DNA of 58,316 bases from a virus (Duplodnaviria > Caudoviricetes): the IMG/VR virus record IMGVR_UViG_3300043449_000381, positions 1-58,316 of that record; one strand, given 5' to 3'. The translations under genes and the position numbers were made by a program. Shown piece by piece: positions 2,135 through 54,820 of this stretch. The notes below the pieces were generated by a model that had not been told where the DNA came from, made no database searches, and saw nothing but the letters and a program-made list of their open reading frames with translations. Position 1 is the stretch's first letter, and the number at the start of each line of letters is the position of its first letter.

Positions 2135-2154
2135 TGCGTTTCTCCTAGTTAATG

Positions 2155-37440: not shown

Positions 37441-39234
37441 ATGGCTAACGCGAATGCAAAGTATCTGGCTGGCCCCGGTGGTCGGTTTGACTTGGCTGAT
37501 CCAGACACTAAACGGATGGTGCAAGCGGTGTCGGCTAACCCGGCAATCGCTCCACAGTACAACGCCTCCCTTGCGGAAATCTTCCAGCTACAGAAGATGC
37601 TGGAGCGCATCTCAACGCCGATGCCCGCCCCGCAGACAACGACTGTCTACGATGACCTGAAAAACGCTGCGCTGCAACAAGCCTCCAGCGGGATGCTGGG
37701 CGAGCCTCCGGCCATGATGGGGCAGCAACAGCCGATGCAAGAACCCCCGATGCAAGCTGCTCAAGGCGGGTTGATGGGTTTGCCTGTACATAACTTCCGC
37801 CATGAGAACTATGCTGGTGGAGGGATCGTTGCGTTTAACGGCGAGGATAATGATCAAGAAGTAAAAGCCGAAAAAGAAACTTCGCCGTTCCTCCAAGGTA
37901 TACGTAATCTCCTTTTTAGTTCGCCAGAAAAGCAAGGCGAGGCGCTTGCACGACAAGCGCAATACAACGAGCAGCTGCGGCAAAACAAATTGCGTCCGGG
38001 GTATTTTGAACGTATGACACCATCCGAACGCACCCGTCGGCAAACAGAATACGATGCCATTCAAGCCGCTAGTAACCCGGCAGGATATGCTGAAGCTGGT
38101 GAGCAACGCGGTCTTGGAGCTGTATCACCCGGTGCTACCCCAACCATTACTCCTGATATTGCGGGCGCTGGTGCAACTCCGACCGGTGGTCCGGTGCGCC
38201 CTGTTCGACCCGCTGGGCTTGCTACTCCCCCTGCCCCTGCCCAACCCGCTGAACCTTCTGAGGGTGAAAAACTTATGAAGGCGGCACAGGCTGCAAGAGA
38301 GGCTCGTGTACAGGAAGCCAAACCGCAAGATCGCGCTGCCTACAGGTCTGAAATTGAACAAGAGTACAAAGCCGCTGGTATTGGTGGGGCTGACAAGGCT
38401 GAGAAAGAACGTATTACCGAGCAACGCGCTCGTGCAAAAGAGCAGTACGGCAAGAGCATTGACCTTGCTGGATTTATGGCTGGTATGAAGATGGCCGCTG
38501 CTGCCTCTCGGCGCGGTGCTACGTTCCTTGGTTCAGCTGCTGAAGGCGGCAGTGAGTTCGGTGCGCAGTACGGCAAAGCGATGGAACAGATGGCAGCTAT
38601 GCAGACCAAGCTGGATGACAAGGAGACAAACCTTGCTCGTCTGGAAGAGGCTCGCAAGATGGGTATCATCGACAAAACGGATGCCCGTCTCAAAGAAGCT
38701 CGTGCAGAGTATAAAGAGGCACAGAACCAAGCACTTAACTTGCAAGAAAAGGGTGCTGATCTGATTTACGGTAAGGAAGTACAAGAAAAAATTGCCAAAC
38801 TGGACCGCGAAAGCCGTGAAAGAGTAGCCAATCTTCAAGTGGCGGCAACCCGTGCAGGACAATACAACGCCTTCCGTGATCTTATGGGTCGTTTGGACAA
38901 AGTGCCAAAAGAACAACACGCGGAAATTATTGCTCAATTTGAAAAAGCGTCAGGTGCTGTGGGTGCTGGCTTTGCAGCAGAAAGGCGTTTAGAAGGCGTC
39001 ACCGCTGCAAGAGAACAGGGGTACTTGAAAGACAAGAATTACCAAAGAAATGGTCAGTTGCTAACCACATTACGTTCTGTTCAGAGTCCAACCAAAGAAA
39101 ATCAAAAAATGATTGAACAGTTGGAAGCAGAACAACGACGGATTAAAGATTCGTATGGTGGTGGGGGCGCGGGAGCAAACACTGCCTACACGGCTGGTGA
39201 TACTGAGCTACTGAAAAAATATGGGCTTCAATAA
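37441..39234 (+). CDS. internal virion/ejection protein
   Basis: 597 aa, helical, YAGGGIVAF motif; lies between ejection genes. Confidence 0.55.
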   Translation: MANANAKYLAGPGGRFDLADPDTKRMVQAVSANPAIAPQYNASLAEIFQLQKMLERISTPMPAPQTTTVYDDLKNAALQQASSGMLGEPPAMMGQQQPMQEPPMQAAQGGLMGLPVHNFRHENYAGGGIVAFNGEDNDQEVKAEKETSPFLQGIRNLLFSSPEKQGEALARQAQYNEQLRQNKLRPGYFERMTPSERTRRQTEYDAIQAASNPAGYAEAGEQRGLGAVSPGATPTITPDIAGAGATPTGGPVRPVRPAGLATPPAPAQPAEPSEGEKLMKAAQAAREARVQEAKPQDRAAYRSEIEQEYKAAGIGGADKAEKERITEQRARAKEQYGKSIDLAGFMAGMKMAAAASRRGATFLGSAAEGGSEFGAQYGKAMEQMAAMQTKLDDKETNLARLEEARKMGIIDKTDARLKEARAEYKEAQNQALNLQEKGADLIYGKEVQEKIAKLDRESRERVANLQVAATRAGQYNAFRDLMGRLDKVPKEQHAEIIAQFEKASGAVGAGFAAERRLEGVTAAREQGYLKDKNYQRNGQLLTTLRSVQSPTKENQKMIEQLEAEQRRIKDSYGGGGAGANTAYTAGDTELLKKYGLQ

Positions 39235-42200
39235 TGGCAACCATAGAGCAGTTGATCGGTGCGCTAAAGCAAGCGGATGCTGCGGGTAATACTGAAGATG
39301 CACAGCGCATCGCAGACATTATCAAGCGGCAACGCGGCGCTGCGCCTGAACCCGCGCCCAAAGAACAGGCTGGGTTCTTTTCGTCACTGCTCAAGGGTGC
39401 TACTGAGCTAGGTGAGGCTCCCGCCGCTGCACGATTTGCCGCAGCCAAGACGCCTGAAGAGCAAGCCAAGGCTCGTGCAGAACTGACCAAACCGCCTGAA
39501 GAAGCAACAACGTCGTTTAGCGATGTCATCAGCGGTAAGGGAAAGTTCACTGACTGGGTCAAACAAGTAGCTGGCTCCAGTGCTGGTGCGCTGGCCGCTC
39601 CTGCGGCTGCTGCGGGTGCTACGCTTCTTACCCCTGCTGCCCCCCTTGCTCCTATTGTTGGCGGTGCAACATTGGTCGGTCAATACTTGACCGGTGCTTT
39701 GGGTCGGCAAGCGCAAGAGCAGCAACGTGCTATCCAAGAGGGTCGCACCCCTGAAGAAACTTCTGTCGCAAAGGCAGGACTAGCTGCCGCTGGTGAAACT
39801 GCGCTTGATGTTTTTGGTTTTAAATTTTTCAAGCCGGTGTTCAAAACTTTCCCGGTGGTCGGAGGATTGTTTGGCGAAGGTGGTGAGCAGCTCACCAAGA
39901 AAACAGTCAACCAACTCACCGATGCCTTTGAGAAGGGCAAGATCAACTACAAGGGTGGGGTTGCCTACGGTGTGGGCAAGGGCGTGGCGTTTGAGATTCC
40001 CCAAGAGATTGCTCAGACCGCGCTGGAGCGTTGGCAAGCTGGTCTGTCCCTGACGGATGAGGAAGCGCGGCACGAGTATGTCGAGGCCGGGGCTGGTGCG
40101 CTGCTGCTTGGTGGTACGTTGGGCGGTGCGTCAGGCGGGATCAAGACTGCTACGGATAAAGCCGTAGCCGAGCGTGTATTAGCAAACAAGGCTGAGCGTG
40201 AACAACGACGACTGGCCGAGCAAGAAGCGGAGGCAGCTGGTGAACAAGCGGTTACGCCACCTGAAGCAGCACTTGCTGATCAAGCTGTACAGCCTTCTGT
40301 ATCGGCTCCCACTACTGAAACGGTGGAGAGGGAAACTGTTCCTGCTGATACTGAAGGGGTAACTTGGGATAATTTAAAGCCCGGTCAATCCGTTACGTTG
40401 TATCGAGGCGAAGGTAAAGAGCAAACCCAAGACGGAGAATGGTGGACAACTGACAAGGCTCAAGCTGAAAAATTTGGCGAGGTAACGGAAGTAACACTGC
40501 CCGCTGAAGTTATTGCGGCTAACGCAGCTAGAGGACATGGCGGTGCTCAAGAATTTGTATTTCCAACCAAAGGAAAACGCCCATCTGATTTAGCAAAACC
40601 CCAAACTCAGGCCGAACAGCCCCAAGTTAGGGAAAAGATTGAGACGCCTACAACACCTGACGAATATCTGTCAGAGATTGCACGGCTGGAACGAGAGCAG
40701 CCAAGGAATGCTGGCCATGCCTCAAACATAAAAAAGAAGATAGAGAAGTACCGCACTGCGTATGAGCAACTGACAAACCGCGACGCAGACGACGCGCTGA
40801 TCGATCAGGCTGCTGCGAAAGGAGCTGCTGATGCAACCCAACTTGGAACTGCTACAGAAACTGTCGCTGGAGGACCTGCAACAGGCGTTGCTCCTACTGT
40901 ACAAGGACAGCAAGCCCCAGCAGGGGGCGTTAGTGGCGTTACAGGACCCGGAGTGGGAGGTCCTAGCGAAGTTACTGCAAAACCTACTGCAAGAAAAAGC
41001 GCAGTCAGTGCTCCACTGACCCCCGAAGAAGCCGCTGATCTGGTTGATCAAGAGGCTGACGCTGCCGAAGCCGCTGCCAAACCCCGCGCCCCTGTAGTTG
41101 AAAAAGAAAAGGGCGAAGAGCGCGGCGCGTCTGCTAGGCAAACAGTTGCCGACATAGCAGAGTCGGTGAGGACAATCCGTGATCAACAGCGCGGGGTGCA
41201 GCCGATAACCAAGGCTAAATTCAACGACAACCTTGACTATCTGGTCGATGTCGCTGAAGACCCCAATAGCACAGATTCAGAGCGCGGCACAGCACAGTCC
41301 GCGCTAAAGCAACTTGCGCTGCCTGAAGCAGAAGTCAATGCCGCTAGAGAGCGCGTTCAAAATCTAAAGCAGCGCCAGAGCGAACTGATCGGTGACGCAG
41401 CTGAGGTCGAAAAACTACAGAAGCGAATTGACACGCTTAACCTGTATCTGCAAAGAGCACGGGCTGAGTACAACGACGCTAAAAGTCTAGACGAAGACAC
41501 CACGACCCTTGAGGATGAAGTCTCCAGTATCGAGGCTGATCTTGCTGGCGCACAGAAACAGTTAAAAGAAAATATAAAGCGGGTTAAATCCGAAAAAGCG
41601 AAAGCGATGCGCAGCCCCACTCGGCGCGAAGGTCCGACGCTTGGTGTAGCCAAGGTTCAGGAAATCGTCAACCGGGTAAAGTCGTTCTGGAAAGGCGCAC
41701 CGGATACACGGGTTGTTGCCAGCATTGAGGACTTGCCGTCCAACCTGCGTAGCTTCTTGGAAACCGCTGAAGCAACCGACGTTCCGGGCATTTTTGATCC
41801 GCGCTCCAAGCGGGTGTATTTGATTGCCGACAACATCGCCACCGAAGAGGCAGCGGTGTATACGCTTGTGCATGAGGCGGTGGGGCACTACGGTCTGCGC
41901 GAGGTACTGGGCGATAAGTACGACGCCACCATGAACAATGCTTACCTGAACCCGGCTATCAAGGCAGCAGCCGATGCGCTGATGAAAGCTGATCCGTCGC
42001 TGAGTAAGCAAGAAGCGGTTGAGGAAGTCATTGCTGAGAAGGCTGTGGACGAGTACGCCACAAGCCCCGCGATACGCAACATTGTTGACCGGATCGCCAA
42101 CGCCATCCGTGCCTTCATCCGCAAAATCAGTGGGGGCAAGGCATACCCTGACTTGAGCGACGCCGAGATTCGCAGCATCGTTGGTGCAGCGCAGAACTTT

Positions 42201-45200
42201 GTGACCACGGGTAAGGGGGCATCAGCCAGCGGGGTGGAGACGACAAGCACCCCTGCCATGCGCAGCCCGATCCGTCCACCCAAGGCCGCACCGACTACGA
42301 CTCAAGCACCGGCCTTGCGCAGCGTTACGCCTGAAGCTGCTATGGCTGAGTTTGAAGCCGACATGGATAGAATATCGAGCAAGTCTCGTGGCGTAGCTGC
42401 CGCTGCTAAATTCATGCGCACCAATGAAGGCTACGAATGGTTGGTCAAGAAGTTTCAGAATGATCGTGTTGCGGTGAAGAACTTGCAAGATGGTCTGCGC
42501 CGTGCTGGCAAACTGCTGATTGGTGAAAAGAACTTCAACAATCTGTATGACATTCTTACCCTGTCACAGGGTAACGCCTACCATGCAATGAATCAGTATG
42601 CGTTCCAAGACATGAAGGCGCTTGAGGATGGGATTCAAGCCTACATGAAGAAATCGGGGCTGGAGTATCAAAAGGCTCTTGCCCGTTTGCATTTGTACAT
42701 GATCGCGCTGCATGAACCAGAGCGTCGTATGGTCAAGTATTTGCGCACTGTACCGTTGAAACCCGCAGCTGCTGACCGACGTGCCGCAATTTACAAAGAG
42801 CTTGCGCAGAATAAAGACCTCGTCACTAACGGTGAAGCGGCCAAGCTTCGCAAAGAGCTTGAGGCATTGGTTGCTGCCAACAAAGACCCCGAAGGTATCA
42901 GCCCGGAAGGCTACAACTACCGAACGACGGACATCAACGCGCCTGAATACAACGTGATCGGCGGGTATGACGCTACCTCCATCAAGGCGTTTAAAGATAC
43001 TTACGACGCTGACCCGAATAAAAAAGAACTTAGCGCCATCTTGAAAGCACTTCAAGCGGTGCAGAAAGACACGATTGAGCTTAACGAGCAAGCAAATTAT
43101 TGGACAAAACCAGTCAACAACCTGACGACGTTTTATGGCTACGAGAACTACGTGCCGTTCAAGGGTAAGCCGGGAAGCAAGGAAGAAAAAGCCTACGACA
43201 AAGATTATTTTGACGACCCGAGCAACCCTCGACTCAGCGGTGACTTGAACCGTGGCGAAGCTGCTATGGAAGGACGTCTGTCAAACTCCGATAACCCGTT
43301 GCTACAGACACTGGCTGATGCTGCTTCTGCATCCATGCGCGTTGGGCGTAAGGACATTGTCCCGGCCATCAGAAACTTGATTGAGCAGAAATACATTCGC
43401 GGGAAAGTAGGCGAAAAGATACCGTTTGAAGAGCGCATGAAAATACGCGACTTCAGCCCATTTCAAGGTGAAGGCAAGTATCTTCTGTACAACGCTGACG
43501 GCTCGATGCAGTTGATTGAAGTGCAAGATCGTCGATTGAATGAAGGCATCAAGCGTGGCTTCCGCGCTGCACAACCTTTTGTGCAGATGGTGAACTCCAT
43601 CACTAGCGGCGTGGGGCAGCTGCATACCCGTTACAACCCTGCGTTTGGCCCGATGAACTTTGTGCGTGACATATTGACCAACGCCTTCACGCTTGGGGCA
43701 GAGCTTGGACCACGGGAAGCCGCTCGGTTTCTCGGCGCTGTTACATCCAGAGTGGTGATGGATCGTGGCTTGCCCAAAGCCTTGAAGGTGGCAAAGCTGT
43801 ATCAGGAAGGCAAAGTTGATGAGATCAACAAACTTGCCGCGTCTGACAAGATGGTAAGTGACATCATTGACTACCTAAAGTATGGCGGTCGGGTGTCGTA
43901 CATCAAGGGTCTTGCCGTGCAGGGGCAGATGGATGAACTGACTCGCAGCTTGGACAAGGGCAAGATCGCGCAGACCAAAGAAAGCGTGGACAAGTGGGTT
44001 GACATTTGGACCGACATGTTTGAATTGACAAGCCGGGCCGCTGCGTTTGGTATTGCTAGAGACAATGCCTTGGCAAAAAGCGTTGCCAGCTTCAAGAAAG
44101 AAAACGGCCGCGAACCCGATACAAAAGAACTAGCAACCCTTACGGACAAGGCCAATATCGAAGGCACGTCCTACGCCAAGAACCTCGCCAACTTTGAACA
44201 GGTCGGTGAGTGGGGTCGGGCAATGGGTGCAGCGTTCATGTTCTTCCGTCCCGCCGCCACAGGTGCAGCGCGGGCGCTGGATGCTTTGTTCCCCGGTCTG
44301 CCCGGACCACTGGCAAAATTTATTGGGCAGGATGTTGATTCCCTGATTGCTCGATTGCCTGAAAGTGTGCGTAACGATCCCGAAGCGGTCAAAGAGTTCA
44401 AGAAATCATTTGAGCAAGAGCAGAAATATGCCCGGCAGATGGTCTACGGATTGCTCGGGGCCGGAGCCACGGCTTATCTCATGGCTTGGATGATGGCCGA
44501 CGACGACGAGCAGGGCCGTAATAGAGTCGCCATTGATGACATGTCTCGATGGACGCGTTACGCTCGTCTGCCAATTGGCGACAGCTTCATGCAGATACCG
44601 TGGGGCTTTGGTTTTGGTTCGTTTGCCGCTGCGGGTGCGCAGGTGATGGCCGCAGTCGTGGGCAAATCAAACCTTGCGGATATGGGTGGCAACCTCGTCA
44701 CTATCGGGCTTGACTCCTTCGTGCCGATTCCGTTCTCGCGTATGAACCCGCTGGACAACTTCGCTGCGTGGGCAATCGATTCGACTGCACCGTCGCTTGC
44801 ACGTCCGTTCATCGAGTACGTGATGAACGTCGATAGTCTTGGCCGTGAGATATACAACAACCGGCAGTCAAGGGTGGGCGATGCTTACACCGGTGGAGAC
44901 AACATCCCTGAGTTGTACAAGTCCACGACCAAGTGGCTGGCAAACCTGACCAACGGTGGCATCGACTGGAGTCCCAACACGCTGTACTTCTTTGCCAATA
45001 ATTACCTTGACGGAGTTACGCGCATCGCTCAAAACGGCACGAACATTGGGATGACGCTCACGGGGCAAAAGGATTTTGATCCCAAGACTGACCTGATATT
45101 CCTTGACAGCTTCATTGGCAAAAAGTCCAACTTCGATGCTCGGGAGTTCGTGCGGGTCGAGAACGAGATCAAGGAAAAGTCGCGTCGCCTCAAGATGTTT

Positions 45201-45449
45201 GAGAACAATCCTGAGCAGCTTGCCCGCTACATCACGGCAAACCCGATGGACATGACGTTAGTTGACCTATACAACGAGGACATCAACGGGCTGATCAAGG
45301 ACTTGCGCACACAGGCAAATGACATACGGCAGATGCAGTTCCTGACGCCAAAAGAGAAAAAGGCGGTTCTTGACGGCCTGATCCTGTCGCAAAACTTTGT
45401 CAAGCGCGGCCTGATTGATACCTACAAGTTCTACGGGGTTGAGCCTTAA
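39234..45449 (+). CDS. large polyvalent virion protein (zincin-like MPTase, possible ART-like domain, LPD38-like C-terminus)
   Basis: 2071 aa; LVHEAVGHYGL...EEVIAE; TLYRG...WWTTD...EFVF; YNPAFGPMNFVRD; C-terminal IPWGFGFG...GREIY. Confidence 0.7.
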   Translation: MATIEQLIGALKQADAAGNTEDAQRIADIIKRQRGAAPEPAPKEQAGFFSSLLKGATELGEAPAAARFAAAKTPEEQAKARAELTKPPEEATTSFSDVISGKGKFTDWVKQVAGSSAGALAAPAAAAGATLLTPAAPLAPIVGGATLVGQYLTGALGRQAQEQQRAIQEGRTPEETSVAKAGLAAAGETALDVFGFKFFKPVFKTFPVVGGLFGEGGEQLTKKTVNQLTDAFEKGKINYKGGVAYGVGKGVAFEIPQEIAQTALERWQAGLSLTDEEARHEYVEAGAGALLLGGTLGGASGGIKTATDKAVAERVLANKAEREQRRLAEQEAEAAGEQAVTPPEAALADQAVQPSVSAPTTETVERETVPADTEGVTWDNLKPGQSVTLYRGEGKEQTQDGEWWTTDKAQAEKFGEVTEVTLPAEVIAANAARGHGGAQEFVFPTKGKRPSDLAKPQTQAEQPQVREKIETPTTPDEYLSEIARLEREQPRNAGHASNIKKKIEKYRTAYEQLTNRDADDALIDQAAAKGAADATQLGTATETVAGGPATGVAPTVQGQQAPAGGVSGVTGPGVGGPSEVTAKPTARKSAVSAPLTPEEAADLVDQEADAAEAAAKPRAPVVEKEKGEERGASARQTVADIAESVRTIRDQQRGVQPITKAKFNDNLDYLVDVAEDPNSTDSERGTAQSALKQLALPEAEVNAARERVQNLKQRQSELIGDAAEVEKLQKRIDTLNLYLQRARAEYNDAKSLDEDTTTLEDEVSSIEADLAGAQKQLKENIKRVKSEKAKAMRSPTRREGPTLGVAKVQEIVNRVKSFWKGAPDTRVVASIEDLPSNLRSFLETAEATDVPGIFDPRSKRVYLIADNIATEEAAVYTLVHEAVGHYGLREVLGDKYDATMNNAYLNPAIKAAADALMKADPSLSKQEAVEEVIAEKAVDEYATSPAIRNIVDRIANAIRAFIRKISGGKAYPDLSDAEIRSIVGAAQNFVTTGKGASASGVETTSTPAMRSPIRPPKAAPTTTQAPALRSVTPEAAMAEFEADMDRISSKSRGVAAAAKFMRTNEGYEWLVKKFQNDRVAVKNLQDGLRRAGKLLIGEKNFNNLYDILTLSQGNAYHAMNQYAFQDMKALEDGIQAYMKKSGLEYQKALARLHLYMIALHEPERRMVKYLRTVPLKPAAADRRAAIYKELAQNKDLVTNGEAAKLRKELEALVAANKDPEGISPEGYNYRTTDINAPEYNVIGGYDATSIKAFKDTYDADPNKKELSAILKALQAVQKDTIELNEQANYWTKPVNNLTTFYGYENYVPFKGKPGSKEEKAYDKDYFDDPSNPRLSGDLNRGEAAMEGRLSNSDNPLLQTLADAASASMRVGRKDIVPAIRNLIEQKYIRGKVGEKIPFEERMKIRDFSPFQGEGKYLLYNADGSMQLIEVQDRRLNEGIKRGFRAAQPFVQMVNSITSGVGQLHTRYNPAFGPMNFVRDILTNAFTLGAELGPREAARFLGAVTSRVVMDRGLPKALKVAKLYQEGKVDEINKLAASDKMVSDIIDYLKYGGRVSYIKGLAVQGQMDELTRSLDKGKIAQTKESVDKWVDIWTDMFELTSRAAAFGIARDNALAKSVASFKKENGREPDTKELATLTDKANIEGTSYAKNLANFEQVGEWGRAMGAAFMFFRPAATGAARALDALFPGLPGPLAKFIGQDVDSLIARLPESVRNDPEAVKEFKKSFEQEQKYARQMVYGLLGAGATAYLMAWMMADDDEQGRNRVAIDDMSRWTRYARLPIGDSFMQIPWGFGFGSFAAAGAQVMAAVVGKSNLADMGGNLVTIGLDSFVPIPFSRMNPLDNFAAWAIDSTAPSLARPFIEYVMNVDSLGREIYNNRQSRVGDAYTGGDNIPELYKSTTKWLANLTNGGIDWSPNTLYFFANNYLDGVTRIAQNGTNIGMTLTGQKDFDPKTDLIFLDSFIGKKSNFDAREFVRVENEIKEKSRRLKMFENNPEQLARYITANPMDMTLVDLYNEDINGLIKDLRTQANDIRQMQFLTPKEKKAVLDGLILSQNFVKRGLIDTYKFYGVEP

Positions 45450-45640
45450 CGGACGCGCCAAACACGTACGCCAAGGCAACCATCAGTCTGTGTGGCAAAA
45501 CACCGCACTTTGATCTTAGCTGCCTTGGCCCGTGTATCGATGATGTAGATCAGCTGCGCTGGTCTGAGGGTTGGGATGAAGAAGCTATCCCCCACCGTCA
45601 TGCCCTCAAACGGTAGCAGCCATTCAGGTTCCTGAATCAT
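45446..45640 (-). CDS. small hypothetical protein
   Basis: PFEGMTVGDSFFIP...GVRVWRV; start reassigned to ATG 45640. Confidence 0.65.
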   Translation of the reverse strand: MIQEPEWLLPFEGMTVGDSFFIPTLRPAQLIYIIDTRAKAAKIKVRCFATQTDGCLGVRVWRVR

Positions 45641-48446
45641 TGTCCAGTATCTCGGCAGGTATGTCGCCGGGGAATCCGTAGACTTGGATGGTGCTCGTGC
45701 TTGCTGCCATGCCAGCCTTCCAGCCCTTTGACAGACGCTGCTTGATCTCAACAAACTTCACGTCACGCTTTTTCAGCTCCAGCTCAAAGCGTTGTGTACT
45801 CAGGCGGTGCTTCTGTAAATACTCCGAGAATATCTTCTTGGAGACATACGTCATCTGATTGTGAACTTCCACACGGGCCACTAGCGCGGTGCGCGGCTCC
45901 TGCACAATCTTGTCGCCGTTGAGGATCAGCATGCCGGTATGGTGCTGGTTGAGGAATTCACCGAGCAGGTTGGAGTAGTCAAAGCTGATCTTCTTGGCTG
46001 TGCCATGCCTGACCGACAGTATCGAGAGAACCACGGCATCGTATATCCGCTCAAGATCAAGCTTGACAATAGCCGCTTCGTTGATCAATTCCCCCGCTGC
46101 CATCGTGACGCCGATCAGGTTGTGGTAGAACCGGAAGGTCGTATCGTCAGTGAAGTCCTTCTTGAACCGCGTCTGCCACTCCTCACCCCGCGCTAAGATA
46201 TGTGCGTTACCGGCCTTGTAGACTTGACGGATGAAGTCAGGGAATGCCCAGCCGTAATTAGTCCTGAACACGTCGAAAATCCGCTCGCCCATCGACGGAT
46301 CACGCTCCAGTATCTCCGGCTTGGTCAAAGAAAACTCCACGACCCGCGCTGATTCCCCGTCAGGGTTTGCCTTTGCCGACTTCAGGATGCTCATCACTTC
46401 TTCGTTGGTGGTCAGCATGGCAATCAAGGACGCCGACACTTCCATCGTGCGCTCGGCATTGACCGAAGACTGCATCCTGACCTTTGCCTTGCCGTGCGAC
46501 ACCCGGTGAATCAGGTGCGCTAACTGCTCGGCATCCTTGTTTGTAACCTCGTCCAAGCCAAACATCAGGTTGTGCAGTCCAAGGCAGCGTTGCAGTAGTG
46601 CGTTGTCGGTCGAATCAAATACGCACAGTTCCTTTGGGTTGGCGAACGTGCTCAGTCCTGCATACATCGCGCCCGTCTTGCCTGATCCCGGCTCGGCAGC
46701 AAAGGAGATCGTCACCCCGCTAGTCGAAGTCAGGTGCATCAGCGGCGAAGCGAAAGCGCAGAGCATGGCGAAAGCATGTATTTCAAGACTCGGACTGTTG
46801 AGCAGTTGGGCCGCTTCCTTCCATTTGTCATACGACCCGGCGGGCTTGAACAGCTTGCCAAGTTCCTTGACGTAGGGAGAGATCGCGGTCTTCACCACTG
46901 TGCCGTCGCGCCGGTATTCTTGGTCGCCCAGCACAAACCCGTTGTAGTCCTCAGTCCAGCCAAACTGCATCCGCATTTGTTCAGCGGATTTGGTCTGTTG
47001 TAAATATTGTCCCCATTTCACGACATATCCTTTCAGGTGGTTAATTGCGTTCGGTTCATACAAGACACCATTTGCCGACATCGCCTTGGACAACTCATCC
47101 GGTGAGTACGCATTCTTCATTGGTACAAGAAACTCGCGGGGAGCGTCATGCGGTAAGACATTCTTCATCAATAAGCAGTCACCATCCAGCGGGCTGTACA
47201 TCCGCTTGATCGCAAACACATCACTTGCCACCAGCTTGATCGGGTCATCCTGTATCTTCTTGCCTTCCTTGGTTGTCTTGGGTGCGGGCATGAAGTAGAT
47301 ACCGCCGTTGACACCCCTTACATATGGCCAGAGGAATTGCGGAAACTCTGGGATTGCCGTCGGGTCCGCGTCTTCCCGTACTGTGTCCGTATTGGGTTTC
47401 TCTTGCGCAGGGATGACTTTGAGGCGTCGGGCAAGTTTGAGAGGGTTGGTGATATGCCCCTTGTGGGGACATCCTTCGCATCGCTCAGGGTGGTGAGCGG
47501 CGAACGTGTTGCAGCTTGTGACTGAGTCAAACGTAAGAGCTTTTTTATATGCGCTATCATAGTTATAGTCCTTGTGGCCCTCAGATACCCACCGAATTGC
47601 ATCCTCCATGTCATCACATTTGGAAGCGAGGGAAAGCATCCCCGCCCACGTATCGTAGTCAAGCGTCTTGGCATTTAGCAGTGCATACTTGACCTGTGCG
47701 CAACCTTCGTCGTTGACACTCGCTTCGCCAAGAATCTCAAACCGCGTTTCAAAGTTGTCGAGCTTCTTCAGGTGCAGCGTATCGTCATCCAAGCCTTTCG
47801 GTATGCTAGCGAATATGTCCGCAAGCGTGTCTTGGGTTGACGGTGCGATGGCAAGCAACTGCTGACAGAACGCATCAAAGCTATGCACAGTGATCTCTTC
47901 GTCCAACAGTTTCGTCGGACTCGGAGGATCAGTCTTGTAGTTGAGCGTACCCGGACTGCGCATGAGCCGCGCTGCGTCAGCCGTTACTACAGGATCAATC
48001 GCTATATAGTCTAGGCATAGCTTCTTGAAGCGTTCGGCCTGTGGCTTCCATTCAGATGTGGGGATGTCCCTATCGAAAATCCAATAGGCATGAACCCCCG
48101 TGCCCGAATCCAAGCGCACAGGTTGCGGCAGCGTTTGCGTCTTGACAAAGTTGTCCAGTGCATCAAGCGCGGCTTCCTTCGTCGTGTATGGTTTTTCAGG
48201 CCCAACGTCTAGATCGATAAAGAACGATCTGAAGAAAACTGAGTCCTCACCCTTCCTGCTAAACCCCTCAAAAGTACCCGGTGTTACGAAAATATTTACG
48301 TCTGAAGCTTTCAGCTTCTCAATGATGTTAAGTAAGTCGTCGAACGTCTCGGCAAAACGATTTGTGGTCTTTCCTGTTTTTGTTATTCCGCTTGCACAGT
48401 AAACGCCCTGCGTAGGCAATGCTTTCTCATAGAATTGTTTTATCAT
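45624..48446 (-). CDS. primase-helicase (AEP/RepB-like primase + DUF927-like helicase)
   Basis: FFIDLD, SGTGVHAYW, ARLMRSPGT, C..CxxC cluster, QFGW, EPGSGKT Walker A, LDE Walker B. Confidence 0.85.
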   Translation of the reverse strand: MIKQFYEKALPTQGVYCASGITKTGKTTNRFAETFDDLLNIIEKLKASDVNIFVTPGTFEGFSRKGEDSVFFRSFFIDLDVGPEKPYTTKEAALDALDNFVKTQTLPQPVRLDSGTGVHAYWIFDRDIPTSEWKPQAERFKKLCLDYIAIDPVVTADAARLMRSPGTLNYKTDPPSPTKLLDEEITVHSFDAFCQQLLAIAPSTQDTLADIFASIPKGLDDDTLHLKKLDNFETRFEILGEASVNDEGCAQVKYALLNAKTLDYDTWAGMLSLASKCDDMEDAIRWVSEGHKDYNYDSAYKKALTFDSVTSCNTFAAHHPERCEGCPHKGHITNPLKLARRLKVIPAQEKPNTDTVREDADPTAIPEFPQFLWPYVRGVNGGIYFMPAPKTTKEGKKIQDDPIKLVASDVFAIKRMYSPLDGDCLLMKNVLPHDAPREFLVPMKNAYSPDELSKAMSANGVLYEPNAINHLKGYVVKWGQYLQQTKSAEQMRMQFGWTEDYNGFVLGDQEYRRDGTVVKTAISPYVKELGKLFKPAGSYDKWKEAAQLLNSPSLEIHAFAMLCAFASPLMHLTSTSGVTISFAAEPGSGKTGAMYAGLSTFANPKELCVFDSTDNALLQRCLGLHNLMFGLDEVTNKDAEQLAHLIHRVSHGKAKVRMQSSVNAERTMEVSASLIAMLTTNEEVMSILKSAKANPDGESARVVEFSLTKPEILERDPSMGERIFDVFRTNYGWAFPDFIRQVYKAGNAHILARGEEWQTRFKKDFTDDTTFRFYHNLIGVTMAAGELINEAAIVKLDLERIYDAVVLSILSVRHGTAKKISFDYSNLLGEFLNQHHTGMLILNGDKIVQEPRTALVARVEVHNQMTYVSKKIFSEYLQKHRLSTQRFELELKKRDVKFVEIKQRLSKGWKAGMAASTSTIQVYGFPGDIPAEILDNDSGT

Positions 48447-48503
48447 GTCCGCAGAGACTAAAATGGCGAGGTCGCCCTCGCCAGTTGATCGTGCGAGGAT
48501 CGA

Positions 48504-48815
48504 TCAGATTTCCATACCGATCATGCCCTCGATGTATTTCTTGCTTGCCGCAAAGTTCTTGGCAGGGAGCACACCCTTCTCAATGTCTTCAGACACAAGC
48601 TTGATGAACGCCTCTACCACCTTGCGGTTCTTGTACCGAATCTTTGCGCCACGGAACCACGAGTAGACCGCCATGCGCGACACCTGCACCGCCTTGGCAA
48701 CATAAGCTGCGGGTAGGTTAGCCTTGACACATATCTTGGCTAGGTCATATCCCAGTCCATCGTTGCCTTCTTGATACAGGCCGAGCAAAAACTTATCACT
48801 GTAATTCCGTGGCAT
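48504..48815 (-). CDS. helix-turn-helix DNA-binding protein
   Basis: AAYVAKAVQVSRMAVYSWFRG, XRE/Cro-like HTH. Confidence 0.7.
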   Translation of the reverse strand: MPRNYSDKFLLGLYQEGNDGLGYDLAKICVKANLPAAYVAKAVQVSRMAVYSWFRGAKIRYKNRKVVEAFIKLVSEDIEKGVLPAKNFAASKKYIEGMIGMEI

Positions 48816-48827
48816 TACTGTCTCCGA

Positions 48828-49670
48828 TTATTTTTTCTTGGACCACTTCTTAACGATGTCCGAAACGTCTGCCGCACCATCCGCTGGCGCAGCGTTAGTC
48901 TCGCGCAGAACCGGCTCTTCGACTTCTTGCGGTGCAGCAACTTCTGCCACGCTGTCAGTCTGATACACGGTCATCTTCACGGCGCTCTCAGCTGCGGCTG
49001 ATTTGGCCTGTGCCATAACCTTGGGAGTATCTTCAGCCGAGACTGCACCGACAGGCGAGAACATCACCTTGGGTGCGGTAGCCTTGGTGTCGAACTGCAT
49101 CTTGGTGACGACACGCCCTGCGCTGATGTTGTTATTGGCAAGCATCTGAATATAGGGGCGGAACGGCCAGCGCCCATTGTCTTCATCGCCAAAACAAGAC
49201 GTAGCCGGAAGCACCAGCTGCATCACATCACCGCCCGGATCACCCGGCAGGACAACCGCCGTGCGCCACGACATACGGCAAGCCGCGCCGATACCACCCT
49301 GACCTGTGCCCTTGACGCTCTTGGGGCAGGTTGCGCAGGACGCGGCGACCGGGTTGTTGACATCCTCATCGGGAGTCTTGGAGTTGCTCGACCAGCAAGC
49401 CGGAGAAATCTTGGCTCCTTCTTGGTACGCGCCTTCGTAATAGGTGCGCGACGGGTCATGTGCCATCTTGACGAAAATGACGTTCATGTGCCGGTCTTCA
49501 ATCGAACCGACTTCCTTGCCGCCAACCATCTTGCGGAACACGCCGCCTTTGATGGAGATACGCTTGCTGCCACCACTGCGACCACCCGCTACTGCAAGGG
49601 TGTCTTCGTCCAGTCCAGTGCCGACGAGGGCGGGATTGTTTTGGATCAGTACTGCGAGTTCATTGCTCAT
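48828..49670 (-). CDS. putative single-stranded DNA-binding protein
   Basis: RISIKGGVF, PACWS...CATCP, flexible acidic tail; position in the replication module. Confidence 0.5.
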   Translation of the reverse strand: MSNELAVLIQNNPALVGTGLDEDTLAVAGGRSGGSKRISIKGGVFRKMVGGKEVGSIEDRHMNVIFVKMAHDPSRTYYEGAYQEGAKISPACWSSNSKTPDEDVNNPVAASCATCPKSVKGTGQGGIGAACRMSWRTAVVLPGDPGGDVMQLVLPATSCFGDEDNGRWPFRPYIQMLANNNISAGRVVTKMQFDTKATAPKVMFSPVGAVSAEDTPKVMAQAKSAAAESAVKMTVYQTDSVAEVAAPQEVEEPVLRETNAAPADGAADVSDIVKKWSKKK

Positions 49671-49690
49671 TATTTGCCTCACTAGGTTGA

Positions 49691-50089
49691 CTAACTATCA
49701 CTTGTTGGTTTACGAACTGTGATTGCAAACTCCCGCATCACATTCACTCCGGGCGGCAGTCCATCGTTCTGATGCTCTGCCATGTACTGCTTGAAGTTAC
49801 CTTGGTGGATACGACGCTCGCGGAAGTCATAGTCCTTGTTCTCATGCTCAAACTTGCGGAAGTTATCCCAGTCATTGCAGAAGAACCGTTCGTTCAACTT
49901 ACGGATCACTGTACCGTTCTTGGTATTGATACTGTTCGCGTTTACTTCGTTGCAGACTGTCAGAAGACTCATTTCCAACTGCGTCATCTGTGCCTTCAAC
50001 TCTGTATCTTCGGCTTCGTACTTGCGCTCAAGGTCTTCTCGCGCTTTCCGCAGACTCAGATACGCCGATACTATGTCCTCAACATTCAT
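49691..50089 (-). CDS. conserved replication-module hypothetical protein
   Basis: N-terminal coiled coil, DWDNF, LPPGV...ITVRK. Confidence 0.65.
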   Translation of the reverse strand: MNVEDIVSAYLSLRKAREDLERKYEAEDTELKAQMTQLEMSLLTVCNEVNANSINTKNGTVIRKLNERFFCNDWDNFRKFEHENKDYDFRERRIHQGNFKQYMAEHQNDGLPPGVNVMREFAITVRKPTSDS

Positions 50090-51660
50090 TTACCCCCCAG
50101 TCCTATTTCCTGTTTATATAGATCAACCAGCTTCTGATGCTGATCAACCTTCCCTTGCAGCATGGCGTACATCTTGTGCTCAACTTCTGAACCTTCAAGA
50201 TGCACGACAGTCATGCTGTTCTTCTGCCCTATCCTGTCAATGCGTGCTATGCACTGAAGGTAGGTTTCTACACTCATCACTGGGGACCAAAACACAATGG
50301 TATCCGCAGCGGTGAACGTAATTCCGTGTGATGCAGATTGCGGTTGTACTACTAGAATTTTTGGGTCGGTGTTGCTTTGAAAACGCTGGATGATGTCGGT
50401 GCGTTGCTTGGCGCTAACGTCACCTTTGATCACCTCACACGTGTATCCCTCTTTCGCTACGTACTTGGCCACAACCTCAATGGTGTGGATGTAGGGGACG
50501 AATACTACAACTTTGTTCGACGTCTCATCAAGCGTTTCTTTCAATGCTTGCAAGCGCGGCGATACATCGAACTCAACAATGTTTCGCTCATCGGTGTAGA
50601 CCGCACCGCCCGATATCTGTAGTAACTTACTCAAGTTTGACGCTGCGTTGACTGCACTGATCTGCTGGCCAGCTGCTTCAATCAACATCTGATTTTTTAA
50701 CTTGCGATAGTACATACCCACTTGTGGTGTCAACGGCACATCTCTTGTTTGATACATGACCTCGGGCAGGTCGAGACACTCTTTCTTTGTGTAGCGGATC
50801 GCAGGTTGCAGTGCGTAGTGAACGTCCTGCTTGGAGTTTGGTTTGGGTAACCACCGGAATTTGCTTACCTGAGCCATGACCTTGTCGCGCCACGCAGTCA
50901 TCGTCTTCGTTGTGCGGTGCGGCGAAACAAGTCTGGCTAACCCGTAGGCATCCATCGGTGACTGCGATGCAGGTGTACCGGTCAGCATCCATAAGCGCGT
51001 CGAGGGTTGCAGTATCCGCGCAAGAACACGCCAACGCTTTGTGCTCACAGTCTTGTAAGCGTTAGCCTCATCGACCACGATCAGGTCAAAGTTTGCCTTC
51101 TCTATCTCTTCACGGACAACGCCCACGCCATCAAAGTTGATGATCACAAACTCGTATGCGCCCTCTATGACCTTGGCACGTTTTGACCGTGAGCCGTAGG
51201 CGACCCCTGCCGTGCGGTGCATCGCGGTCTTGAAGATGTCGGCTTGCCATGCCGAGTACATGATTGACAGCGGACAGATGACCAGCACACGCTTGACCAA
51301 CCCTAGCTTCATCAGGTAGTCAGCTGCCCATATCACAGATGATGTCTTGCCTGTACCCGCCTCGTTGAAACAGAAAGCGCGGCGACGCAGACTCAAGAAT
51401 GACGCAGTGGTCTTTTGATGTTCAAACGGTGTGTAGATACCTGACCAAGAATAATCACGCAGCATCGGTGATGGTAGCGTGGTGTCGGTGTCTAGAACTT
51501 TTGCGAGGAACGCTGCCTCGTCGTAACCCCAATAGACAACTAACTCTTTATTGTCGTTTGATTGGTTGATGACTTCGGATTTTGCAACGCCCAACAAAAC
51601 TCTGTCAGCATCATCGGCTGGCATCGTGACTCGTAGCGCAGTGTTTTCAATTATTTGCAT
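50086..51660 (-). CDS. SNF2-like superfamily 2 helicase
   Basis: EAGTGKT, VVDEA, LTGTP, SHGITF, QCIARIDRIGQ. Confidence 0.9.
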   Translation of the reverse strand: MQIIENTALRVTMPADDADRVLLGVAKSEVINQSNDNKELVVYWGYDEAAFLAKVLDTDTTLPSPMLRDYSWSGIYTPFEHQKTTASFLSLRRRAFCFNEAGTGKTSSVIWAADYLMKLGLVKRVLVICPLSIMYSAWQADIFKTAMHRTAGVAYGSRSKRAKVIEGAYEFVIINFDGVGVVREEIEKANFDLIVVDEANAYKTVSTKRWRVLARILQPSTRLWMLTGTPASQSPMDAYGLARLVSPHRTTKTMTAWRDKVMAQVSKFRWLPKPNSKQDVHYALQPAIRYTKKECLDLPEVMYQTRDVPLTPQVGMYYRKLKNQMLIEAAGQQISAVNAASNLSKLLQISGGAVYTDERNIVEFDVSPRLQALKETLDETSNKVVVFVPYIHTIEVVAKYVAKEGYTCEVIKGDVSAKQRTDIIQRFQSNTDPKILVVQPQSASHGITFTAADTIVFWSPVMSVETYLQCIARIDRIGQKNSMTVVHLEGSEVEHKMYAMLQGKVDQHQKLVDLYKQEIGLGGK

Positions 51661-51681
51661 ACTCTATCTGACTGGTTAGTT

Positions 51682-51846
51682 GACTGAAATGCCCCTTACG
51701 GGGGCAAGTCGTCTATGGCCTACGTTAAAGAAGGAGGGAAAACGCATCCATAGATGACACGGTTTGGCGCTAAAAACGCAACGAAAAACGCCGGGAGATT
51801 GAGGAGGTGATCTCCTTGCCTACCCACTCATGCCTGACGGTGGCTC
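51682..51846. ncRNA. multi-hairpin structured intergenic element, strand uncertain
   Basis: Four consecutive stems: TGCCCC/GGGGCA, GTCGTCTATGG/CCATAGATGAC, GGCG/CGCC, GGAGAT/ATCTCC. Confidence 0.5.
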
Positions 51847-52101
51847 TCACTTCATCGCTCCACTCGACTTGCGAGGGAAGGAACGATTCTTGTGTGGCGA
51901 CTCCAGCCGAACACCGTCCGAGTTGGAACCCCCCTTGGACAGCGCCTTGACATGGGCAACATCCTTACCCTTGCGGCTCACACCTTTGGCGTCTAGCTTG
52001 CGTCGGGCACGTTGGCGCTCCATGCGGTCTGACAGTTCACCGCGCTCTTTCTGCTGTTGATACTCTTTTTTATACGGCCGTGGTTTGTTGACGTATGGCA
52101 T
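51847..52101 (-). CDS. small HNH-like protein
   Basis: GKDVAHVKALSKGGSN...NRS. Confidence 0.6.
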   Translation of the reverse strand: MPYVNKPRPYKKEYQQQKERGELSDRMERQRARRKLDAKGVSRKGKDVAHVKALSKGGSNSDGVRLESPHKNRSFPRKSSGAMK

Positions 52102-52102
52102 A

Positions 52103-52771
52103 TCATTTTCCTCTGTGAAATTCGCAGCTGTCTACGGGACACCACCCACACAACGGCGTAGGGTTTGCTTGCCAAGTGCCCGACTCAAACGAATTCTGTA
52201 AACGCATCAGGTGTTCTTTGAAACTGTCCCACAGCTTGGCCTCATCTTCGCGTTTGAACTCGTCATTGATGAAGCTGTTGTGCATGACAAATAACAGGCC
52301 AGCTTTTACTTTGACCAGCTCGGGGAAGTGTGCAAACGCCATGAGCGCCATCAACTTCAACTGATTCATGTCCGGGTAGCGGTTGCTGCCCGTCTTGTAA
52401 TCTACGATGTATCCATGATCCTGATCGATCACCATCAAGTCTGCGATCCCTCGCACCCAGTACTCCTGCGCTCCGAACGAACAGGGTTTCAGGTCGTTAG
52501 TCAGCGCCATGCGGTGCTCAGGGTAACGCTCACCCTCAATCTGTAGCAACGCGTCAAGCAGCGGCTTGAACTGCTCGTAATTTTTCTTGAGCGGTGTGCC
52601 GTCCCGCACATAGTCCTCTAGCGCGGCGTGTACTTCTGTGCCGTAACGCATCTGCTTGGTTACGCTCTTGGTGTAACGCTTGAGGACTTTGACCTCGTGA
52701 TACTGCTTTGGACAATTGATATAGTCCTTGAGGCTGGAGTAAGACCACTTGGTAGATAGACTGGGATTCAC
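52103..52771 (-). CDS. Cas4/RecB-like PD-(D/E)XK exonuclease
   Basis: SYSSL...CP, GIADL, VDYKTG, QLxL, CGWCP..C; start set at GTG 52771 after AAGGA. Confidence 0.85.
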   Translation of the reverse strand: MNPSLSTKWSYSSLKDYINCPKQYHEVKVLKRYTKSVTKQMRYGTEVHAALEDYVRDGTPLKKNYEQFKPLLDALLQIEGERYPEHRMALTNDLKPCSFGAQEYWVRGIADLMVIDQDHGYIVDYKTGSNRYPDMNQLKLMALMAFAHFPELVKVKAGLLFVMHNSFINDEFKREDEAKLWDSFKEHLMRLQNSFESGTWQANPTPLCGWCPVDSCEFHRGK

Positions 52772-52787
52772 TGGGTATCCTTTTTGG

Positions 52788-54647
52788 TCAGCATTCACCA
52801 TAAGAATACGCATATTTAGCCTCGCAAGCAACCGGCAAACCGACCGCCCAGTCCGGTGGTACAGACATTACTTCAGTCACAAAACTGACCGCTTCCTCTA
52901 CCTCATCGTCCGGCACAACGAGCACCGCTGCGTCATGCACTGTCAACACAGGTCTATACTTCGCCCGTAATTTCAACATCTGTTCGCCAACGATAATTCT
53001 AGCTAGGGCTTGCACTACGTTCTCCACAATCGTGCCGCCCCATATCGACACAGGACCCTTGCGGGAAGTGTACGACCACTTGTAATTATCTAATGTCAGA
53101 CCGGAATACCGGATATGCAAACCATTTGGCAAGCGAACCCCTTCCGGGTAGACCGACAGCACTTTGTGCTTATCAATATAGAACGCACGTTTCTCTACCG
53201 GCCACGCGGAGAGCGGCGTCAGTATTTTCTCGCACTCGCTCCACAACTCCACGATCTTGTCGTTCGTCGCACGGTACAGATCAACAATCTCTTTGCATCG
53301 CTCCTCGGTCAGGTCAGCGCCGGGTGGTTGCGTCTTCAGCGTATGCCGTAGCTTCGGCGCCCCAGTGCCGTAGCCAAGACCAAGGATGCAGGTCTTGCCC
53401 ACGAATCGTTCCACGGGGTTTGCCTTGCTGATGGGCTGCTCGTATATCTTCGATGCGAACGTCGAGTAAACATCTTCACCATCAGCAAACTGCTTGACCA
53501 AATCATCCTGCCCAGCAAGCCATGCGAGCACCCGCGCTTCAATCTGCGAAGAGTCACAGTTGATGACTGTGTACCCGTCAGGTGCAGTGACCGCGTTCTT
53601 GAGTGTCTTCTTTTTCTTGTCTCGGCTTGGCAGGTTTTGAAAATTCACCTTGTCAGAGCCAGCCCATCGTCCTGTGTGTGCGCCGTAATACTTCAGCGGG
53701 ATAGGCAAATTACCCCGGTTACGTTTGCCCACATCAATGAACCGCTCGATGCGTGACTCCTCAATCGTGGACTTAGTGCCAAGCCTGACCGCGCACAGAT
53801 GCTGGATGAATGTGTCCTCGTGCTCTGTCAGCGCAATGAAACCCTCGTCGTTCTTGGCAAGCGCGTAGGTCGGCTTGCCCGTGGTGACGCTATCTTTCAT
53901 CGGCACTTCGATGCCGAATGACTCTAGAAGCTGCGCGAATTGTGGATTGCTGGCTAGTTTTTTCCTTACCTCTTCCTCGGTCGCGCACTTCAGCTTGTCT
54001 TTCAAGCTGCCCAGCAGCTGTAGCTTCTCTGCTCGAATCTCCTCCAACCGCTCCACCAACAGCGCGTCGTCCACCTTGAGCACCGGGTGCGTGAACATGC
54101 GCAGTGTCAAGTCGATCAACTCCAACTCCGACTCGGGAAAATCCTTGGTCAGTATGTTGAACAGATCATAGGTCAGCGCCACGTCGTTCTTGCAGTACTC
54201 GCCATACCGTGCAAGTTCTTCAGGCGTGAAGTCTTCCCGCTTCTTGTTGACCGCAGCAACAACTTCTTCGCCCTTCAGACCAATCTCGTAACGCTTGGCA
54301 AGCGATGCCAGTGACCCCCCTGCCTCCACGCCATGCACAGCGCGAGCCATGCACAGCGTGTCAAGGTACATCGCTGGAGATATGTTGAAGAACCACTTGA
54401 GGATCGCCCCGTCAAACATCGTGTTGTGACACAGCAGCGCGGAGTCGCGCCACTCGTATGTCAGCAGATGTTTGTGCAGTTCTTCCTTCGGACCGGAGAA
54501 CCATGAGACTTCACCGTCATCCACCTTGATGCCGACACCGATCACCTCAAAGCGCGGATCACGGATGTACTCCTCGGTGGTTTGGTTCTTGAACCCCAAA
54601 TCCTTGTCGGTGTAGTACGTCTCAAAGTCTAGCGTGATAAGGCTCAC
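52788..54647 (-). CDS. polA: family A DNA polymerase with 3'-5' exonuclease
   Basis: LDFET, HNTMFD, YCKND exonuclease motifs; HTGR, NFQNLP, DSSQIEAR (A), RFVGKTCILGLGYG (B), VHD (C). Confidence 0.92.
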   Translation of the reverse strand: MSLITLDFETYYTDKDLGFKNQTTEEYIRDPRFEVIGVGIKVDDGEVSWFSGPKEELHKHLLTYEWRDSALLCHNTMFDGAILKWFFNISPAMYLDTLCMARAVHGVEAGGSLASLAKRYEIGLKGEEVVAAVNKKREDFTPEELARYGEYCKNDVALTYDLFNILTKDFPESELELIDLTLRMFTHPVLKVDDALLVERLEEIRAEKLQLLGSLKDKLKCATEEEVRKKLASNPQFAQLLESFGIEVPMKDSVTTGKPTYALAKNDEGFIALTEHEDTFIQHLCAVRLGTKSTIEESRIERFIDVGKRNRGNLPIPLKYYGAHTGRWAGSDKVNFQNLPSRDKKKKTLKNAVTAPDGYTVINCDSSQIEARVLAWLAGQDDLVKQFADGEDVYSTFASKIYEQPISKANPVERFVGKTCILGLGYGTGAPKLRHTLKTQPPGADLTEERCKEIVDLYRATNDKIVELWSECEKILTPLSAWPVEKRAFYIDKHKVLSVYPEGVRLPNGLHIRYSGLTLDNYKWSYTSRKGPVSIWGGTIVENVVQALARIIVGEQMLKLRAKYRPVLTVHDAAVLVVPDDEVEEAVSFVTEVMSVPPDWAVGLPVACEAKYAYSYGEC

Positions 54648-54820
54648 TGATCTAGTACCTTCTGTAGTTCGTGCATGCAGAATATGCGGATAGCGCGGGC
54701 GCATACGATGATCTCGTCAGCCTTGTCACAGGCAGTCTGCCAGTCATGCTTGAGCATTGCGTCATGCGCTTCGCGTTGCAGCTTTTGAATCTTAATGATG
54801 TTCTCGCCGTAGTCGATCAT
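54644..54820 (-). CDS. small hypothetical protein
   Basis: MIDYGENIIKIQKL...; overlap-coupled on both sides. Confidence 0.6.
   Translation of the reverse strand: MIDYGENIIKIQKLQREAHDAMLKHDWQTACDKADEIIVCARAIRIFCMHELQKVLDQ

Follow-up and report, generated by a model that had tools for sequence, protein, structure and literature searches.

The 58,316-nucleotide (nt) stretch analysed here, called the window throughout, is the virus record IMGVR_UViG_3300043449_000381 of IMG/VR (58.3 kb, 92% complete by CheckV), and the element in question occupies its 186-nt gap at 51661-51846, between a gene for a protein of 84 amino acids (aa) and a gene for an SNF2-family helicase, both on the minus strand. 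The gap carries a structured RNA organised around an H-type pseudoknot, and this RNA is one member of a large family of structured RNAs, about 125-200 nt long, of uncultured freshwater phages. The best explanation is that the operon (minus) strand is the one transcribed here, the element forming part of the mRNA or its 5' leader. Comparison of its relatives suggests, tentatively and with a probability of about 0.4, that it may be a cis-acting regulatory leader in which a conserved sensor core is joined to a variable output part.

On the minus strand the gap folds with a minimum free energy of -56.9 kcal/mol (z -2.34; 6 of 200 shuffles as good), and on the plus strand it folds no better than chance (z -1.10; 26 of 200 shuffles as good). 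An original prediction, made from the letters of the window, had described four adjacent hairpins; the hairpins are there but number five (P1, P2a, P2b, P3 and P4), and absent from that earlier reading was the pseudoknot, in which GGCAUG (51834-51829) pairs with CGUGUC (51761-51756). The sequences that it had quoted are found on the minus strand at the positions it gave, GATCACCTCCT at 51812-51802 as an exact match and the sole exact copy in the window, and TTCCCTCCTTCT at 51740-51729. It is comparison with relatives, and not the window sequence alone, that marks the element as more than a chance fold.

Relatives were collected through the helicase, the best 80 of 595 confirmed relatives among IMG/VR contigs being taken as loci (cited below by L numbers). 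The order exonuclease, 84-aa gene, helicase is conserved across these loci and the spacing between the last two genes is not: among the 75 loci that have both genes, the spacing is at most 32 nt or an overlap in 40, 62-80 nt in 3, and at least 131 nt in 32. The long gaps have two blocks in common, R-U-N-A-GGNNNG-AGUG and, further on, AAC-CNNNYC, whose six variable letters pair at six of six positions in the window and in 21 loci, with letter combinations that include, among many, GGCAUG/CGUGUC, GGCGUG/CGCGCC, GACGCA/UGCGUC, GGUAAG/CUUACC and GGUACG/CGUACC. The first block forms the loop of P1, and the P1 stem covaries as well; the two blocks therefore make up an H-type pseudoknot.

In an alignment of 18 sequences made with MAFFT (A2), the pseudoknot is paired in 100% of cells, with compensatory changes in four of its six pairs, and the outer P3 helix is 96.6% paired, with compensatory changes in all seven. 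None of 500 shuffles matched these pairing values, and sliding the partners by 1-3 columns lowered pairing from 82% to 34-41%; the A preceding GG and the AGUG of the P1 loop are invariant. Across 85 aligned matches pairing amounts to 100% for the pseudoknot, 96.1% for P3, 73.4% for P1 and 78.8% for P4, again reached by none of 500 shuffles, and all six pairs of P1 show compensatory changes, one subgroup using a register shifted by one. Because the 85-sequence alignment is model-fitted, and because the DNA pattern behind part of it (described below) fixes the pseudoknot letters, the independent weight lies with P1, P3, P4 and the helicase-derived pseudoknot variants. A small protein gene was also considered for these gaps and rejected, a stop-free sense frame being found in 6 of 41 non-redundant cores, with lengths in all three classes modulo 3.

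The same alignments decide the strand. Two of the six pseudoknot pairs are G-U in 64 and 63 of the 85 sequences, and on the plus strand both would be C-A mismatches, so that the fold exists on the operon strand only; taken with the covariation, this bears out the structured minus-strand RNA first proposed. The original prediction had further envisaged a plus-strand RNA whose loops would act as a sponge for ribosomes or CsrA. AGGAGG and GGA do occur in the complementary loops, but the chance-level plus-strand fold and the broken pseudoknot pairs speak against such an RNA, a GGA sponge of the CsrB/RsmZ type included, and the flanking genes and the promoter-like sites of relatives all lie on the other strand; it is highly improbable. 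Also very unlikely is a feature acting at the level of the DNA, for instance a replication origin or what a mobile insertion left behind, to which the RNA fold would be incidental. Such a feature would suit a single-copy element that adjoins replication genes in most members, and a likeness of the helicase tail to a relative with an empty site (L001) hints at insertion; the compensatory changes, however, keep pairing on one strand only and with many G-U pairs, which fits RNA or at best one DNA strand, the element does not sit at a GC-skew extreme of the window, and no iterons were seen there.

The extent of the family was gauged with a covariance model, R1, built from the window and 17 of its 21 matching helicase loci. 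R1 has a single match in the window (51673-51854, minus strand, 90.4 bits, E 2.1e-26) and finds the element in 21 of the 80 helicase loci, every one at E of 1.8e-15 or lower; it also matches an independent locus with the same gene context (L133, 68.7 bits). A DNA pattern in which one common pseudoknot sequence was fixed drew 115 stretches from IMG/VR, 108 of which R1 matches at E of 0.01 or lower. An earlier pattern that left the pseudoknot letters free was too loose and was set aside, the letters being complementary in 3 of 118 stretches and one of these (L133) being real. Matches to the model are 124-202 nt long, with two of 91-92 nt that have no P3. Copy number is one per genome in four of four records searched (three of them complete) and in the window.

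Nothing in Rfam corresponds to the element, which answers the database scan put forward in the original prediction: Rfam 15 at the gathering score gave no match over the whole window, a search of 51500-52000 at E of 10 or lower gave only a chance CRISPR-DR36 fragment (12.9 bits), and searches of eight and seven related loci at E of 1 and 0.1 gave nothing on the element. With blastn, the window region had no match among 50,697 phage records, and the element of L018 had two short matches of chance level at E of 10 or lower. R1 found no match in the nearest cultured phages, Rollin, Xp15, RHph_TM3_14A and HHU4 (0 of 4), an empty answer that shows little. Literature searches did not find a description of the motif, although the supplements of PMC10690425 may hold an overlapping unnamed candidate. 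The catalogue in question comprises 8495 unnamed structured-RNA candidates (DNAVirus_X); like the relatives described here they come from IMG/VR, in their case from intergenic regions, and they are objects of the same sort as the element (PMC10690425). That main text has no occurrence of helicase or SNF2, and its candidates average 67 nt, as against 125-200 nt for the element (PMC10690425). The element is judged to be a new family, though of a kind already known among structured phage RNAs, overlap with the supplements being possible.

Two loops of the fold had attracted notice in the original prediction for their likeness to the 3' tail of 16S rRNA, whose anti-Shine-Dalgarno core, CUCCUU, is used by the ribosome to find mRNAs through their Shine-Dalgarno (SD) sequences. 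Judged by the refuting condition that the prediction had set, loops not conserved among relatives, their fates differ: the P3 loop is conserved and predicted to be unpaired, and the P2 loop, with its 11-nt identity to 16S rRNA, is not conserved. Counts in the 45 non-redundant P3 tips are 32 for CUCC (7.1 expected; 0 of 300 shuffles as high), 21 for UCUCC (2.0 expected), 20 for CUCCU (2.1 expected) and 17 for UCCUU (2.2 expected), with 0 of 500 shuffles as high for each of the last three; CCUCC occurs in 7 (at most one shuffle as high), and the complement, GGAG, in none (2.9 expected). In the predicted P3 fold CUCC is unpaired in 26 of its 37 occurrences. The P3 loop is thus a true family feature, equal to the anti-SD core. 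The P2 region shows no such enrichment (CUCC in 8 of 46, where 4.6 are expected and 41 of 500 shuffles reach as many) and differs even among the closest relatives, and the longer identity, GAUCACCUCCU, is confined to the P2a hairpin of the window.

The proposal that the loop masks the SD sequence of the helicase in cis found no support, as P3 tips have no special complementarity to their own ribosome-binding site (RBS). Pairing energies (n = 35) are -8.25 kcal/mol with the cognate RBS, -8.47 with those of other members and -8.33 for shuffled tips, 3616 of 5000 permutations being as good, and the P3 loop of the window reaches -7.0 kcal/mol with the helicase RBS, the average for 1059 candidate starts being -7.33. 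None of the partners tried for the P3 loop (own RBS, L1, P2, J3/4 with P4, and the 5' flank) gave a cognate excess. Complementarity between tip and L1, P2 and P4 is slightly lower within a member than between members, and these weaker cognate internal pairs fit a P3 loop that is kept free for an outside partner. The helicase start of the window (CAGAUAGAGU AUG) indeed has no good SD sequence. At L029, L035, L039, L042 and about 30 further helicase loci that have no element, the helicase is preceded by a strong SD sequence, AAGGAGCAAAC, and starts with GUG, and at the element-bearing loci a weaker SD sequence (AGGA, AGGU, AAGA; AGAUAGAG in the window) goes with an AUG start; the two groups are separate clades, and the link between SD strength and the element may therefore reflect descent only.

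A free CU-rich loop would also serve a trans-acting small RNA (sRNA), the main idea of the original prediction, in which the scaffold displays a UCUCCUU seed that silences SD-led mRNAs of host or phage. The conserved motif, so often unpaired and free of internal partners, and the single copy per genome are consistent with this possibility, and two members (L036 and L041) look like stand-alone genes, with an upstream promoter at 9 and 11 of 12 positions, respectively, and a strong hairpin with a U-run downstream. The P3 loop of the window is predicted to pair at -16 to -22 kcal/mol with G-rich ribosome-binding sites of other phage genes, for example those of the starts at 58279, 57630 and 50089. 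Complementarity to SD sequences is, however, generic to any CU-rich loop and singles out no specific target, and the 10-nt invariant pseudoknot core would be needless for seed pairing. CyaR, RsaE/RoxS and RNAIII likewise have exposed C/U-rich loops complementary to SD sequences, but these are host sRNAs, simple hairpins with promoters and terminators of their own, whereas the element has a pseudoknot core and in most members neither a promoter (13 of 44 have one) nor a terminator (a U-rich tail follows P4 in 9 of the 24 members that form it). As the window has neither, an sRNA would there have to be cut from the operon mRNA. On balance a trans-acting sRNA is less likely than a cis-acting leader.

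The surroundings of the element vary. A helicase homologue follows it in 70 of the 115 pattern loci; in L225 and L250 the helicase comes first and the element stands between it and a gp157-like gene, in L226-type loci it precedes a 292-aa protein that matches no known family, and in L305, L227, L221 and L269 it is followed by a non-coding stretch and then by an Sf6-type small terminase and a large terminase. What follows the core is equally varied. A P4 hairpin is present in 24 of the 41 non-redundant members, its loop being CGUAA in 12 and AAAGA in 6; in L032, L036 and L041 a strong hairpin with a U-run takes its place, and in L226-type members P3 leads directly into the RBS. P4 was considered as a general intrinsic terminator and rejected, given that a U-rich tail is confined to 9 of the 24 P4 formers and that P4 in the window, followed by AUUUCAGU, is absent from the terminator scan. 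In helicase contexts, 32 of the 35 non-redundant members have the start of the helicase 25-94 nt downstream of P3. A sigma-70-like promoter (at least 9 of 12 positions) that ends 11-38 nt upstream of the pseudoknot is present in 13 of the 44 non-redundant members, compared with 2.2% of 880 control windows.

A cis-acting leader is favoured because the core is invariant while the part that follows it differs (nothing, P4, a terminator or an RBS), and because the element lies either close to the next start codon or downstream of a promoter. The conserved, covarying core and its place in a 5' leader are as in riboswitches. In such a leader, the pseudoknot core would act as a docking or sensor platform for a conserved factor supplied in trans, which might be a small molecule, a protein or the transcribing polymerase, and the part after it, be it P4 alone, a true terminator hairpin or the RBS itself, would form a variable output. 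Binding of the factor would then decide whether transcription or translation proceeds into the downstream module (in the window, the helicase-to-primase genes), and the anti-SD-like P3 loop would be kept free to contact a purine-rich partner.

Several observations weigh against a cis-acting leader. The window and 31 of the 44 members have no promoter-like site upstream, so that the element often lies inside an operon and not at its head, and where a -10 box ends 11 nt before the pseudoknot (L215, L286 and L298), a transcription start 7 nt after the -10 would remove the 5' strand of P1. Inspection, short of a systematic search, found no conserved alternative pairing between core and output part, nor does the linker after P3, by inspection, covary with the 3' strand of the pseudoknot. 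Riboswitch regulons usually have a common metabolic theme, and the genes downstream of the element (helicase, gp157-like gene, 292-aa protein, tRNA-Met with terminase) have none. The pattern-derived loci, moreover, favour a single pseudoknot sequence, which leaves the helicase-derived set as the only source of the pseudoknot covariation.

Placement within operons invites comparison with processive antiterminators, and the element might be an antiterminator or anti-pausing RNA that binds the elongating host polymerase, like HK022 put or Bacillus EAR. Its position is independent of the next gene, it is always co-directional and lies inside or at the head of long replication, recombination or packaging operons, it is promoter-proximal in the 13 members mentioned above, and terminator-like hairpins directly follow it in L018, L024, L032, L036 and L041. 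The window has a good terminator-like hairpin 3.2 kb further down the operon, ahead of the primase gene; it is a consensus match, not a demonstration of function, and bears on antitermination only. Terminators are, however, not enriched at 45-58 kb, where 11 were found against 13.7 expected, these calls too being consensus matches. The put RNA suppresses termination through the zinc-binding domain of the polymerase beta' subunit. It works on terminators at least 10 kb away and its putR copy lies about 270 nt from the transcription start, according to the sections of PMC9378689 that deal with put. As those sections portray it, put resembles the element in being a phage-encoded folded RNA on the gene strand, after a promoter or inside an early operon, and indifferent to the genes that follow, but it is about 70 nt long, with two stem-loops, a triplex and no pseudoknot, and is present in two copies per genome, downstream of the early promoters (PMC9378689), whereas the element has 125-200 nt, an H-type pseudoknot, four helices and one copy. 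The two have no sequence likeness, and the element is thus no relative of put; an antiterminator that would work in the manner of put or EAR is possible but rather unlikely.

Few invariant junction nucleotides (A, AGUG and AAC), a pseudoknot and a GNRA-like loop would also be in keeping with a self-cleaving ribozyme, or with an RNA-processing or stabilising module that cuts or protects the polycistronic mRNA at a module boundary. Small phage ribozymes show gene-independent placement, and the element is patchy among close relatives and shifts in its intergenic position (upstream of the helicase in the window, downstream of it in L225 and L250, ahead of tRNA-Met or the small terminase gene in L305 and L227), with a tRNA gene as its neighbour in three loci. 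No known ribozyme family matches it, even at E of 10 or lower, and no cleavage site can be named, which leaves this role doubtful.

Among other systems set beside the element, the H-type pseudoknot riboswitches (SAM-II, preQ1-II/III and similar ones) resemble it in architecture: in these a loop pairs with a downstream strand after an A-rich linker, as in the element, and they too stand in a 5' leader near the start codon with a variable part after the core. They differ in that no Rfam riboswitch matches the element, that its pseudoknot 3' strand is not an SD sequence, and that the metabolic theme is missing. The antisense RNAs c4 of P1/P7 and CI of P4 are structured and lie upstream in the operon they target, with loops complementary to downstream RBS regions, but the Rfam scans gave no c4 match, the loop of the element is not RBS-specific, and the fold is different. 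The pseudoknot in the leader of T4 gene 32 nucleates binding of the regulatory protein. This leader of a phage replication gene, a case mentioned in PMC10690425, serves one gene and its own product, whereas the element precedes several unrelated genes.

The non-coding RNAs of phages have been charted far less than their proteins, and the element is abundant, with at least 108 verified IMG/VR copies from one narrow DNA pattern and a further 21 through the helicase. It stands where replication, recombination or packaging modules begin, the place at which a phage would put a timing switch, and its conserved single-stranded UCUCCUU loop offers a concrete handle on mechanism. There is a small chance, judged from the sequences, that the family represents a new class of phage RNA that carries a copy of the anti-SD sequence on a rigid pseudoknot scaffold or, equally, that the pseudoknot core is a new class of riboswitch aptamer or self-cleaving ribozyme. 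The former would capture SD-containing RNA or a factor that reads the 16S tail, reprogramming translation during infection; the latter would be carried by hundreds of freshwater phages. More generally, a sensor, antiterminator or ribozyme would add both a new class and a compact regulatory part, and an RNA that captures SD sequences would be a new viral way of interfering with translation.

The features of the element and its neighbourhood are collected in Table 1. The gap, which the original prediction called the only sizeable one in the replication operon, is so only within the block from the DNA polymerase to the primase; upstream of that block, gaps of 112-264 nt occur among small early genes (54.7-57.2 kb).

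Table 1. Features of the pseudoknot RNA and of the surrounding replication genes in the window, in operon order
Feature	Position	Strand	Remarks
Family-A DNA polymerase	52788-54704	(-)	minus-strand replication block
PD-(D/E)XK exonuclease	52103-52831	(-)	minus-strand replication block
84-aa very basic protein, phrog_4590, without Pfam match	51847-52101	(-)	stop codon 2 nt before P1
Whole structured RNA, P1 5' strand to P4 3' strand	51691-51844	(-)	covariance-model match 51673-51854
P1 hairpin, GCCACC (51844-51839) with GGUAGGC (51824-51818, one bulged A)	51818-51844	(-)	
P1 loop, 14 nt, GUCA-GGCAUG-AGUG	51825-51838	(-)	
Pseudoknot 5' strand, GGCAUG, within P1 loop	51829-51834	(-)	
P2a hairpin, GGAGAU / AUCUCC, loop CACCUCCUCA	51794-51815	(-)	holds the 11-nt identity to the 16S 3' tail; lineage-specific
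P2b hairpin, GGCGUU / AGCGCC, U-rich loop	51766-51792	(-)	family-variable region
Invariant AAC (51764-51762), then pseudoknot 3' strand CGUGUC (51761-51756)	51756-51764	(-)	
P3 long hairpin, UCUAUGG / CCAUAGA and UGCGUU / AACGUA	51712-51754	(-)	
P3 apical loop UUCCCUCCUUCUUU	51727-51740	(-)	anti-SD-like; family consensus about UCUCCUU
Linker CGACUU	51706-51711	(-)	family pattern C/G-G-A/U-C-U/A
P4 hairpin, GCCCC-CGUAA-GGGGC, GNRA-like loop	51691-51705	(-)	followed by AUUUCAGU (poor U-tract)
30-nt tail (51661-51690), weak RBS CAGAUAGAGU, helicase ATG (51660-51658)	51658-51690	(-)	
SNF2-family helicase, 524 aa	50086-51660	(-)	downstream gene
gp157/Gam-like protein	49691-50089	(-)	minus-strand replication block
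Two proteins, family unassigned	48504-49682	(-)	minus-strand replication block
Terminator-like hairpin, 8 bp (6 G-C) then UUUU	48464-48483	(-)	57-nt gap before DUF927 gene, same operon; consensus scan
DUF927 primase-helicase	45624-48446	(-)	minus-strand replication block

The tail before the helicase ATG at element-bearing loci (51661-51690 in the window; ending, for example, in UCAGUAAAGGAUAGU AUG) resembles L001:2985-3000, where the end of the 84-aa gene is followed by its stop codon and RBS (ending in GAAGUAGAGGACAGU AUG). This likeness to a relative with an empty site may be an insertion footprint, which would fit the patchy distribution and shifting position of the element. The 84-aa gene itself is kept in relatives both with and without the RNA; phrog_4590 has no assigned function, and by eye the protein appears to have a minimal HNH-type motif (DVAHVKALSKGGSN...N) and an arginine-rich stretch.

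At three of the loci with terminase genes, the element is followed at a distance of 280-600 nt by a tRNA-Met (CAU) gene (L305:2414-2488(+), L221:3006-3080(-) and L269:3808-3882(-)). ARAGORN found no tRNA in the window, and a tRNA-like reading of the gap was rejected. In L227, at the head of the packaging genes, the element is immediately preceded by a phage gene with a domain like the alpha C-terminal domain of RNA polymerase (1645-2136(-); Pfam RNA_pol_A_CTD, E 2.5e-13). Nine loci (L044:2704-2819(+), L221, L259, L270, L279, L293, L296, L297 and L298) have a second non-coding element that recurs, ACACGCAUG and, after 40-100 nt, CAGCCGUGU; it lies either directly after the pseudoknot RNA or, in L044, alone in the gap before the helicase. 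ARAGORN recognises no tRNA in it and Rfam gives a weak match to a tmRNA 3' end only; in L298 it contains a T-arm-like GGGGGUUCGACUCCCCC. Elsewhere in the window, a 2071-aa protein (39234-45449(+)) contains an LPD38 domain (large polyvalent protein), and a DUF2201 metallopeptidase-like gene lies at the left end (2-991(-)).

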